From NCBI GenBank assembly GCA_964644705.1, contig CAZXYF010000003.1, positions 1 to 38,637 of the forward strand: DNA of 38,637 nucleotides. Direction: 5' to 3'. The translations under genes and the position numbers were made by a program. The notes under the pieces were generated by a model that was given only the letters and a program-made list of their open reading frames with translations, was not told the DNA's origin and did no database searches. Shown here piece after piece: positions 1,342 through 12,409 of the stretch. Numbering within the stretch: position 1 is the first letter of the stretch; each line of letters starts with the position of its first letter. The stretch is from an uncultured candidatus Brocadiaceae bacterium. Its GTDB lineage: Bacteria; Planctomycetota; Brocadiia; SM23-32.

Positions 1342-1383
1342 CGAAGAGGAACATAATCTAATGAGGGCGATATAGAAATTCAA

Positions 1384-1797
1384 CAGTTGTAGGTGTTCTC
1401 TGCGAATGTAGCGCCCTCATGATACAAAGGAAGATCTTTGAACTGGCGAAAACAGGGAACATTTTTCAACTGATAATAAAGACAGCACCTTACAGCCTTG
1501 TAACCTGAAGCAATGAACACACCTCAGACCCCGTATAAACGGGTTGAAAAACGGAGTCAGCCAGAACCCAATGAATAATGATGGGATGGGATAATTTATG
1601 AGCACATCCGGATTAGTACTTTATATGGGCATTATATTGGTCAATAGCGGTGAAAAACACCTCCCCGGAGTTTTGGGGATGAGCGTAAATTGTTGCCCGT
1701 GTAAATGATCTGATGTGGCTGTCATAGTTCTGGTGTGTGACGTATATATTTCTGAGGGATGAATTTGCAGATGGTTGCATTGGTTGTTTGGGCTGTC
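1384..1797 (+). ncRNA. Putative large structured RNA / 5' leader upstream of rny
   Basis: Nested helices 1481-1486/1792-1797, 1499-1505/1773-1779, 1522-1528/1751-1757, 1560-1567/1727-1734 and 1620-1631/1694-1705 (12 bp, two G-U), plus a separate irregular hairpin at 1384-1472. No credible ORF. Confidence 0.55.
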
Positions 1798-1821: not shown

Positions 1822-3384
1822 ATGTTTGGAATTGATATCGAAGCGTGGCTTTTTCTGACCAGTGTGTCGGGACTAGTGGTTGGATATTATTTGCGTCGGG
1901 GATTGGCTAAGGCTGTTGAAGAAAACGCGGAAGCAAAGCGCGAAGAAATTCTCGCACAAGCTGAGAAAGAGGCTGAACAGCTTAGTCGAGAAATGGAAGT
2001 TGAAGCACGACAGGAGCTTATTGAACGGCGTGAGGATTTCGAGGAAGAAGTCAAAGAAACCCGACAGGAACTCAGACAGACCGAGAGGCGTCTGGAGAAG
2101 CGAGAAGACTCCCTCAGTCAAAAAGAAGCCGAGGTTGAGAAAAAAGAGCGTCACCTGGAAACAGCTGAGAAAAACTTGGAGGAAAATCGGAAACAACTCG
2201 CTCAACGTGAGTCCGAAATTGAGGAGCTGAAAGAACAACAGAAGGATGAGCTCTATCGCATAAGTGGGTTGTCGAAAGAGGACGCGCGGAACATCCTCTT
2301 TGAAAGGATGGAGGACGAGGTTGAGCGAGAGTGTGAGGAATTAATTGGCGAGAAACTTGTTCAGGCGGAAGATAAGGCGGAAAAAGAGGCACGCCGGGTT
2401 CTCGTTGATGCTCTGGAACGATGTGCGGCTGATGCTGCCATTGAGACGACCACATGCACGGTAGAGCTTCCCAAAGATGATCTGAAAGGGCGGATTATTG
2501 GAAGAGAAGGGCGGAACATTCGCGCCTTTGAAAAGGCGACGGGTGTGGATGTGATAGTTGATGATACTCCGGGGGTGGTAGTGCTGAGTAGCTTTGACAG
2601 TGTACGGCGGGAAGCTGCTCGTCTGGCGATGGAGCGGTTAATTGCTGATGGCCGGATACATCCGGGGCGCATCGAGGAGATGACGGATGAGGCCTGGGAT
2701 GATATTCAGGAAGTCATCCGGGAGACCGGCAAAGATGCCGTTTACGATATGGGACTCTCGAAGGTTCCTGATCAGATCCGCAAATTACTTGGTCAACTGA
2801 AATTTCGCACCAGTTTCGGCCAGAATGTCCTTCAGCACTCGATTGAGGTGGGACAAATGGCCGGTTTGATGGCGGGTGAGCTGGATTTAGATGTGCGATT
2901 GGCCAAACGGTGTGGATTACTGCATGATATCGGCAAGGCACTCGATCACGATCAGGAGGGATCGCACGCTGTGCTGGGAGCCGAAGAGGCCAAGCGGTGG
3001 GGAGAAGATGATATCATCGTGAATGCGATAGAAGCGCACCATGAAGATGTGGATTCCCAATCGCCTTATGCCGGCCTCATACTGGCTGCTGACACTTTAA
3101 GCGCCAGCCGACCCGGGGCACGACGTGAAACACTGGAGCGGTATGTGAAGCGTCTTGAGAACCTGGAGAATCTTGCGGAAAGCCAGTCGGGAGTCCAGAA
3201 CGCCTATGCTATCCAGGCCGGGCGGGAGATTCGCGTCATGGTTGATTCGGAGAAAGTTAACGATAAAACCGCAGCAAAACTGTCGTGCGACATTGCCTCA
3301 CAGGTGGAAGGAGAACTGCAATATCCGGGTGAGGTACAGGTAACCGTGATTCGTGAATCTCGCTACCAGGAGACGGCTCACTGA
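1822..3384 (+). CDS. rny: Ribonuclease Y
   Basis: N-terminal TM helix, coiled coil, KH domain (KGRIIGREGRNIRAFE), HD domain (LLHDIGKA), C-terminal YAIQAGREIRV and YPGEVQVTVIRE. Confidence 0.98.
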   Translation: MFGIDIEAWLFLTSVSGLVVGYYLRRGLAKAVEENAEAKREEILAQAEKEAEQLSREMEVEARQELIERREDFEEEVKETRQELRQTERRLEKREDSLSQKEAEVEKKERHLETAEKNLEENRKQLAQRESEIEELKEQQKDELYRISGLSKEDARNILFERMEDEVERECEELIGEKLVQAEDKAEKEARRVLVDALERCAADAAIETTTCTVELPKDDLKGRIIGREGRNIRAFEKATGVDVIVDDTPGVVVLSSFDSVRREAARLAMERLIADGRIHPGRIEEMTDEAWDDIQEVIRETGKDAVYDMGLSKVPDQIRKLLGQLKFRTSFGQNVLQHSIEVGQMAGLMAGELDLDVRLAKRCGLLHDIGKALDHDQEGSHAVLGAEEAKRWGEDDIIVNAIEAHHEDVDSQSPYAGLILAADTLSASRPGARRETLERYVKRLENLENLAESQSGVQNAYAIQAGREIRVMVDSEKVNDKTAAKLSCDIASQVEGELQYPGEVQVTVIRESRYQETAH

Positions 3385-3956
3385 GACAGCTGGATGAGCT
3401 CCTCGCCTGCCCGGCGTGCGGATTCCCGGTGGTCATCGCGGTCCAGAACGTCGTCTTTGGCGTCAAGATCCGGATAAAATCGGGATACCTGACAGTTGAT
3501 GTTCAATGTTGAGAGCCAGGTTTTCACGATGTGGGAGGTGCATTGGAAGTAGTTCTTGCGGTCCATGGCCCCCACGCACAGAAATGCTCCCTCACGTTCC
3601 GGTTCCGGCGGTTTGCCGAGGCGGTATGTGCGGACCCAGAAGCACTGGAACCGGTCAATGAAAACCTTGGCGTGCCCGGGAAGAGAAGTAAAATAGATGG
3701 GCGTTGCGAGGATCACGTGGTCCGCCTCACAAAATCGTGTGTACATGTTTTGCATTTCATCCTGAACAACGCACTCTCCTGTTTCCCAGCATGCATTGCA
3801 GCTCCTGCATGGGGTGATGGACATCTCTCGGGGGACAATCTTTTGGACTTCGATATTGGCCGTCTGGCTGGCCATGCCCTCGAGCATATTATCGAGAAGG
3901 TGTTCGCTGTTGCCGTTTCTGCGAGCGCTGGAACAAACTGCAATGACGTCGGCCAT
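3378..3956 (-). CDS. Flavodoxin-family / iron-sulfur flavoprotein (NADPH-dependent FMN reductase fold)
   Basis: SSARRNGNS, CRSCNACWETGEC (CX2CX2CX5C), ATPIYF and KVFIDRFQ motifs. Confidence 0.88.
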   Translation of the reverse strand: MADVIAVCSSARRNGNSEHLLDNMLEGMASQTANIEVQKIVPREMSITPCRSCNACWETGECVVQDEMQNMYTRFCEADHVILATPIYFTSLPGHAKVFIDRFQCFWVRTYRLGKPPEPEREGAFLCVGAMDRKNYFQCTSHIVKTWLSTLNINCQVSRFYPDLDAKDDVLDRDDHRESARRAGEELIQLSQ

Positions 3957-3983: not shown

Positions 3984-4694
3984 TTATTGATACTCTGTGG
4001 GATCGGGAACATCCGCCTTTTCAAATCCCCGTTTCCGAAGTTGGCATGCGTCACAATGACCGCACGCCCGCCCTTCTGCATCCGGATTGTAGCAGGTCGA
4101 TGTGAGAGAGTAATCAACCCCTAACCGTGTTCCGGTGCGGATGATTTCCTCTTTGGTCATTCCCTGCAGTGGGGCGCGGATTTTCGTGGGAGCACCTTCG
4201 ATAGCTTTTTTGGTGGCCACCTGGGCCAGGTTCTGAAAAGCTGCTATGAACTCCGGGCGGCAATCCGGATAACCGCTGTAATCGACCGCGTTGACTCCGC
4301 AAAAGATGCAGTCAGCATCCGTGCTCTCCGCGCGAGCTAGGGCGCAGGAAAGAAAAATGGTGTTCCGGGCGGGAACATAAGTGGCCGGGATGTTTTCCGT
4401 AAGTTCCCGGGCAGAACGGTCCTGAGGAATGGATTGTGCCTCATCCGTGAGTGCGCTTTTGGCGAGCTGCTGGATTGGAAGGTCTAAAATTTGATGATCG
4501 CGGATGCCTTGATTGCGGGCGATCTGTTGGGCAGATTCAACTTCGACGGCATGACGCTGTCCGTAGAGGAAGGTGAGGGCATGGCATTGGTAGCCCCGAT
4601 CTCTGGCTATAGCCAGAGTCGTCGCTGAATCTAACCCGCCGCTGAGCAATATTACTGCGGATGGTTCGTTCCCCTTTCTGTGATCAGCTGTCAT
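3984..4694 (-). CDS. queC: 7-cyano-7-deazaguanine synthase
   Basis: LLSGGLDS, YGQRH, TYVPARN, DYSGYPDCRPEF and CY...CGHCDACQLR zinc motif. Confidence 0.97.
   Translation of the reverse strand: MTADHRKGNEPSAVILLSGGLDSATTLAIARDRGYQCHALTFLYGQRHAVEVESAQQIARNQGIRDHQILDLPIQQLAKSALTDEAQSIPQDRSARELTENIPATYVPARNTIFLSCALARAESTDADCIFCGVNAVDYSGYPDCRPEFIAAFQNLAQVATKKAIEGAPTKIRAPLQGMTKEEIIRTGTRLGVDYSLTSTCYNPDAEGRACGHCDACQLRKRGFEKADVPDPTEYQ

Positions 4695-12315: not shown

Positions 12316-12409
<94 letters not shown>

Follow-up and report, generated by a model that had tools for sequence, protein, structure and literature searches.

The gene for RNase Y, rny, is preceded in the genome studied here by a real, conserved, uncatalogued and unusually large structured mRNA leader that contains a covariation-supported pseudoknot or alternative pairing. 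The stretch of DNA that we analysed (hereafter the window) is 38,637 nt long and comes from a metagenome-assembled genome that is 92.5% complete; within it, the leader would span about 470 nt, from ~1348 to 1821 on the + strand. It represents a structured-RNA family not yet catalogued, whose most likely task, judging from the better studied leaders of comparable genes, is negative feedback on RNase Y output, a reading to which we would give a probability of roughly one half.

In many bacteria, bulk mRNA decay begins with RNase Y. To our knowledge, control of its level is known only for B. subtilis, and we know of nothing that has been established about RNA decay in Planctomycetota. A pseudoknotted leader supported by covariation, and three to four times longer than that of B. 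subtilis, suggests an elaborate control device. The leader's association with rny holds for a whole family, and other Brocadiia families possess long leaders with a similar layout. The analysis also adds a large structured RNA family that is lacking in Rfam 15, and it yields a concrete RNA whose helices are defined, together with a covariance model and a linker at which cleavage may take place.

A long leader between a distal promoter and rny

The promoter-like site that the sequence-only reading had recognised is indeed present at 1312-1341 on the + strand. It is sigma-70-like and agrees with the consensus at 11 of 12 positions (-35 TTGACA, 1312-1317; 18-nt spacer; -10 GATAAT, 1336-1341), which would place the transcription start near 1348. 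The rny gene itself (1822-3384, +) encodes a protein of 520 aa with the Pfam domains RNase_Y_N (4.1e-46), KH_1 (1.5e-07) and HD (3.7e-19), and its ATG start codon (1822-1824) follows a Shine-Dalgarno region, GGGAGUGAG, at 1811-1819 on the same strand. A GGAGG-like sequence occupies the equivalent place, directly after the hairpin that we call P3 below, in 19 aligned tails. Since a search of the + strand from the promoter to rny revealed nothing resembling a terminator, and since the ribosome-binding site is built into the architecture of the element, we regard the latter as a cis-acting leader.

The promoter is found at a comparable distance in related genomes. RNase Y was found in 35 of 40 of these, and of the 26 relatives whose upstream sequence extends to 900 nt or more, 22 carry a TTGAC[AT]-N16-19-xAxAAT site 450-760 nt before rny, where shuffled sequences gave an expectation of 0.22. 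A relative of the same genus has TTGACA-18-GATAAT ~505 nt before its ATG and a rod of ~345 nt that ends at its ribosome-binding site; in most relatives the leader measures ~590-690 nt. Among 20 Planctomycetota from outside the Brocadiia, a promoter-like site ~500-650 nt upstream of rny was seen in four.

That the leader is a coding sequence was considered and rejected. The longest open frame within positions 1-1821 does not exceed 93 codons, the small ORF at 1598-1708 (36 aa) has no Pfam match, and tblastx among ten 5S-to-rny spacers, that of the window included, revealed no frame-specific conservation. The leader sequence is single-copy, no second copy having been found in the window's genome, and the fragments recovered from contigs of four DNA runs are all near-identical, their 0-2 differences being too few to be informative. 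A search for RNA sequencing runs containing this DNA returned none.

In nine of twelve same-family loci scanned with Rfam (L004, L006, L008, L009, L011, L013, L014, L016 and L018), rny lies 795-934 nt downstream of 23S-5S rRNA genes on the same strand, and its promoter follows the 5S by 100-240 nt. Because rny follows the rRNA genes so closely, many assemblies break near it. The window's genome has no assembled 5S, and its contig begins just upstream.

Architecture of the leader and its covariation

On the + strand, positions 1384-1797 fold with a minimum free energy (MFE) of -142.1 kcal/mol, compared with -109.2 +/- 5.7 for 100 dinucleotide shuffles, none of which was as good (z -5.81). The - strand folds less well (MFE -108.9, z -3.70), which fits the existence of G-U pairs on the + strand only. 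The sequence-only reading had drawn this segment as an irregular hairpin of ~90 nt followed by a rod of ~317 nt, and every helix that it named is present in the MFE structure, in which the rod runs inward from 1481-1486/1792-1797, includes the 12-bp stem 1620-1631/1694-1705 with two G-U pairs, holds a side hairpin (1530-1543) in the region described as an internal bubble and two apical hairpins (1649-1661 and 1662-1679) at the described apical junction, and stops at 1797, which leaves 24 nt to the ATG at 1822. Two features had escaped that reading, namely that the first hairpin is only part of a larger 5' domain, within which 1355-1375 pairs with 1406-1424, and that a hairpin of 4-5 bp (1797-1811) separates the rod from the Shine-Dalgarno sequence. 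No helix in the MFE of the window's leader runs uninterrupted for more than 12 bp.

The conserved blocks of the 5' domain were exposed by aligning 15 same-family leaders. The hairpin P1 (1384-1472, +) is composed of the helices 1384-1389/1467-1472 and 1391-1402/1453-1464, which are found both in the MFE and by covariation. It reads CCGCUG...CAGCGG in the family consensus and CAGUUG...CAACUG in the window, which amounts to two compensatory swaps. RNAalifold predicted 12 pairs for P1 from the 15 species, eight of them with compensatory changes. Extended to 20 species, 83.1% of the cells of P1 are paired, compared with 73.4 +/- 1.7 in column shuffles, and its covariation score is 0.392, compared with 0.221; neither value was reached in 500 shuffles, and moving the partner strand by 1-3 columns as a control left 36-52% of cells paired. 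The 5' domain contains only seven invariant columns, most of which fall in helices or in the CAG anchor.

The second helix of the 5' domain, stem A, is formed by a 5' strand at 1355-1375 (+) and by 1406-1424, which lies in the apical region of P1, such that stem A and P1 constitute either a pseudoknot or alternative folds. Its core, 1361-1372 with 1409-1420, is 92% complementary, the duplex amounts to -19.5 kcal/mol in the window, and it is used by the MFE of the full leader. Indels shift the register of its strands and thereby prevent column-wise counts on an alignment fitted to the covariance model, and we therefore adopted a duplex test, in which each species' own two strands are compared with all cross-species combinations over 10000 permutations. 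In 20 species, cognate strands pair with a mean of -25.95 kcal/mol versus -19.80 kcal/mol for non-cognate ones, and no permutation was as good (0/10000); the stem fails in two of these species (L006 and L008).

The 5' domain is joined to the rod by a short linker, AUAAUAAA (1473-1480, +), which is A/U-rich and single-stranded in the alignment. A+U makes up 67-100% of the linker in the 19 of 20 species for which this was computed, in leaders that are otherwise GC-rich and whose overall A+U content is 31-56%. The linker of the window is a candidate endonuclease site.

The large domain P2, that is, the rod (1481-1797, +), is closed by a helix of 1481-1486/1792-1797 and 1488-1489/1790-1791 with an invariant CAG/CUG core and covarying flanks. 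In the duplex test, the closing helix scored -18.33 for cognate versus -16.18 for non-cognate strands, with one of 10000 permutations as good; in 17 of 20 species the best-scoring duplex falls at the homologous position, and the ends of P2 pair with each other in the MFE of 19 of 20. Covariation in the rny upstream regions of relatives, which the sequence-only reading had named as a check, thus supports P1, stem A and the closing helix.

What the closing helix encloses is far more variable, with P2 ranging from 317 to 526 nt among family relatives. Taken alone, the rod of the window has a z of -7.2 (12 shuffles, hence rough), and across 20 species the z of P2 is at or below -2 in 14, between -2 and 0 in four and above 0 in two (again a rough measure, with 12 shuffles each). 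When a fixed segment of 414 nt upstream of rny was folded in 14 relatives, z fell below -3 in only four, and cutting at the P2 anchors instead gave stronger values. When the window's leader was aligned pairwise with that of its same-genus relative, nothing beyond the closing helix and P3 was recovered. Inside the rod, the window's sequence is unalignable to its relatives, and folding energy is the sole support for the structure there. Three leaders of genus g5 do align over their full length, and their consensus is a long rod with apical branches comprising 202 pairs, 23 of which show compensatory changes.

The last element, the hairpin P3 (CGCCC-AGAUC-GGGCG, 1797-1811, +), abuts both the 3' strand of P2 and the Shine-Dalgarno sequence. 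An equivalent is present in 17 of 19 species, as read by eye from individual folds and sequences. Its middle pair is U-A in most of them and C-G in the window and in L003, L012 and L070, corresponding to swaps in three lineages. MAFFT with RNAalifold predicted no pairs from the 19 P3 tails, because differing loop lengths misalign them.

Distribution of the leader and its relation to catalogued RNA families

Sequence similarity is of little help in following this leader. Searches with blastn and nhmmer of 1300-1821 against the rny upstream regions of 28 relatives gave nothing significant, and we did not find a close relative whose leader could be aligned with that of the window: a metagenome scan with RNase Y produced nine loci, none with more than 61% identity in its best segment, and the best match in a corresponding scan of a genome collection reached 72%. 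We therefore turn to R1, a covariance model of the 5' domain built on 15 training sequences that were taken from rny upstream regions. R1 finds exactly one match per genome in 20 of the 31 genomes of the window's family, f1, the training sequences accounting for 15 of them. The five new matches precede rny by ~500 nt in the same orientation, and each is accompanied by the promoter, the CUG closing strand, P3 and a Shine-Dalgarno sequence. The window, itself a training sequence, scores 55.2 bits (E 4e-11). In all 20 genomes, then, the R1 match lies upstream of rny on its strand, as is expected of a cis-linked leader that is co-conserved with a nuclease gene, and the window has the complete family arrangement of promoter, stem A, P1, A/U linker, CAG...CUG helix, P3, Shine-Dalgarno sequence and rny. 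The sequence-only reading had offered a novel rny leader as one of its two suggestions, and as to the nature of the element this is borne out by a structure that is conserved, covarying, single-copy and found only upstream of rny.

The remaining 11 family genomes gave no R1 match. In G003, G007, G013 and G024, rny is present but cut short where the contig ends or nearly so, while G010, G015, G018, G020, G023, G042 and G045 either lie outside the search with the rny protein or yielded no demonstrably intact rny locus. Neither the other Brocadiia families nor the rny upstream regions of 20 other Planctomycetota gave a significant R1 match, so that the family it describes appears, as far as modelled, to be confined to one Brocadiia family within the Planctomycetota.

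Other Brocadiia families share the general layout, in which a promoter precedes rny by 450-760 nt and the leader forms a giant nested fold. Among them is f5, a family with complete genomes which we take to be the enrichment-cultured anammox family Brocadiaceae. Five AT-rich rny leaders of f5 (L020, L022, L023, L024 and L025), folded together, yield 83 consensus pairs, 22 with compensatory changes; they show a closing helix around ~490 nt, a CCUUC segment that pairs with the GGAGG ribosome-binding site, and a conserved 7-bp hairpin between GGAGG and the start codon. The layout is thus class-wide in the Brocadiia, whereas homology between the families is not proven. It is conceivable, although we consider this a doubtful extrapolation, that the rny leader ranks among the largest conserved bacterial cis-acting RNAs (~470-690 nt), has perhaps diverged across the whole class, f5 included, and is more than a passive target of cleavage, its pseudoknotted 5' domain and giant enclosed domain acting either as a dedicated sensor of how much RNA decay the cell can sustain or as a large non-coding RNA that is processed, has a function of its own and is made in stoichiometric amounts with RNase Y.

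Comparison of 823-1821 with Rfam 15 gave no family match at the gathering score or at E<=10. The leader is also distinct from the E. coli leaders rne5 (presumably RF00040) and rne-II, in that it has no Rfam match to them, the gene downstream is rny, and the RNase E/G gene of the genome is on another contig. Full-text searches of the literature brought up no account of such a motif ahead of rny, whether in Planctomycetes or, beyond B. subtilis, elsewhere.

Proposed function and competing explanations

We propose that the leader sets RNase Y output after transcription has started. If free RNase Y activity were high, the enzyme would cut an exposed A/U-rich segment of its own leader, for which the conserved linker beside stable helices would be the prime candidate, other loops being possible as well. 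Such a cut would detach the structured 5' pseudoknot domain, which we presume to be protective, and the coding part would consequently decay or be translated less. P2 and P3, in turn, may keep the ribosome-binding site in a fixed context and shield what remains of the leader.

We favor feedback because of two precedents, and a role of the leader in the stability or translation of rny mRNA is inferred by analogy with them. In B. subtilis, RNase Y autoregulates by cleaving the 164-nt 5' UTR and the early ORF of its own mRNA, and it prefers single-stranded AU-rich sequence near secondary structure (PMC10303841). The leader of the window belongs to the same gene, is likewise preceded by a sigma-70/sigma-A-type promoter, and has A/U-rich single strands beside structure, the type of site at which RNase Y is reported to cut (PMC10303841). 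It differs from the B. subtilis leader in its length (~470 versus 164 nt), in its pseudoknotted 5' domain and in the enclosed domain of 317-526 nt in the family, and we found no sequence or Rfam relationship between the two. The B. subtilis UTR pathway moreover needs RNase J as its second-step enzyme, and RNase J (TIGR00649) was not found in the window's genome, which is 92.5% complete; the B. subtilis mechanism is therefore not transferable as it stands.

The second precedent is E. coli RNase E, which is reported to autoregulate via the rne 5' UTR (PMC13692253). The rne5/rne-II elements resemble the leader described here in that they are long and structured, precede the gene of the principal endonuclease by which decay is initiated, and conserve shape above sequence (PMC13692253). 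They are used for feedback control (PMC13692253), which for the window's leader we suggest by analogy. They differ in that they precede the gene for RNase E rather than that for RNase Y; no covariance-model match connects them with the window's leader, which is also larger. In the latter, the strongest constraint acts on helices rather than on a defined cleavage sequence, a pattern that would suit a protein-binding or a purely stabilising element equally.

RNase III cuts the rnc and pnp leaders of E. coli. A serious rival to feedback by RNase Y is that the leader is the substrate or platform of another ribonuclease, with RNase III acting on the rod or the structured 5' end gating 5'-end-dependent RNase E/G, and that rny is cross-regulated by the rest of the decay machinery. 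The genome encodes a protein with an RNase III domain as well as a member of the RNase E/G family, P2 is a long stack of helices, and the 5' end is buried in structure within ~7 nt of the inferred start. However, the longest uninterrupted helix, at 12 bp, is short for a canonical RNase III site, and the interior of the rod is conserved neither in sequence nor in length, so that we regard cross-regulation as possible but on balance not probable.

It is also conceivable that the pseudoknot at the 5' end works as a sensor, either in the manner of a riboswitch or by binding a regulatory protein, and that a signal-dependent switch between stem A and P1 alters the translation or stability of rny mRNA. 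The two crossing helices, both of them covarying, can be read as alternative folds, and in the MFE of the window's full leader the formation of stem A frees the 3' arm of P1, which then pairs with the start region (1816-1829), drawing on an 11-nt complementarity between 1458-1468 and 1816-1826. In addition, CCUUC pairs with the GGAGG ribosome-binding site in the five aligned f5 leaders. The pairing of the P1 arm with the rny start is, however, not conserved. In the duplex test, for which it served as the negative control, cognate strands scored -16.51 versus -16.32 for non-cognate ones and 3797 of 10000 permutations were as good, and we discarded it. Furthermore, the seven invariant columns of the 5' domain leave few invariant unpaired nucleotides, unlike known small-molecule aptamers, and no riboswitch of Rfam matched. 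A sensor therefore appears unlikely to us.

A further possibility is that the folded part exists as a separate non-coding RNA, which shares the promoter with rny and is released from its transcript. It would be large and very stable and would have a strong promoter of its own, and one candidate is 6S RNA, which the sequence-only reading had proposed in an oversized form on the premise that 6S often lies near rny. 6S RNA indeed shares with the leader a rod-like fold with internal loops and a strong promoter of its own. Yet RF00013 gave no match at the gathering score, none at E<=10 in positions 1-2000 and none genome-wide at E<=1, while the control genomes were detected. Instead of a rod of ~180-200 nt with a central bubble resembling an open promoter, the window has a rod of 317 nt within an mRNA leader of ~470 nt, and the length of the rod varies between species (317-526 nt). 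The premise found no support in the Brocadiia genomes searched. RF00013 matches occur in nine of 16 genomes of other Brocadiia families (G025-G040), four of them above the cut-off, and in G028, G038 and G040, the genomes compared, the match is separated from rny by hundreds of kilobases to more than 1 megabase. Five f5 genomes are among these nine and have kept the distal rny promoter, which means that families with a 6S RNA elsewhere still retain the long leader. With no model match, a variable length and 6S genes far from rny in sister families, we rejected the identification of the leader as 6S.

Within the window's own family, a search of 25 genomes (G000-G024) did not reveal a canonical 6S. 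This leaves the 6S of that family unaccounted for, as an advocate of a stand-alone RNA might point out, but an undetected 6S is no evidence that the leader is 6S. Among other large RNAs, OLE, GOLLD, ROOL and HEARO are bacterial non-coding RNAs to which, as far as we know, no function has been assigned. The leader resembles them in its several hundred nucleotides, its many helices, the support from covariation and the narrow phylogenetic range, but they stand alone, whereas the leader is fused to a ribosome-binding site and to a specific gene, and it has no Rfam match to any of the four. Given also that no terminator precedes rny and that P3 and the ribosome-binding site are part of the same architecture, we find release of a separate RNA distinctly improbable.

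Finally, that the structure arose by chance or is the functionless remnant of a mobile inverted repeat, as the group II intron remnant 490 nt upstream and a - strand that also beats its shuffles (z -3.70) might suggest, conflicts with the covariation tests: compensatory changes have preserved the architecture in 20 species, and the element is single-copy and always upstream of rny. This reading hardly deserves credence.

The intron remnant itself makes up the start of the contig, where positions 1-822 correspond to the 3' part of a group II intron. Its domain V/VI (672-822) was identified by Rfam with 46.9 bits (cut-off 40), and a D1-D4 segment (87-227) scored 45.2 bits, just under the cut-off of 49; no ORF of the size of a reverse transcriptase lies between these two segments, and other contigs of the genome contain only short partial similarities to the remnant, of 28-110 nt. 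The 489 nt between the intron end and the rny promoter (823-1311) are poor in ORFs, with no Rfam match and no similarity to the relatives' 5S-to-promoter spacers. On the other side of rny, 3' of it and on the opposite strand, are genes for an FMN reductase / flavodoxin-like protein (3378-3956, -) and for QueC of queuosine biosynthesis (3984-4694, -). Further downstream, at 12316-12404, there is a tRNA gene of 89 nt (Rfam tRNA, 53.6 bits), the length of which suggests a long variable arm.
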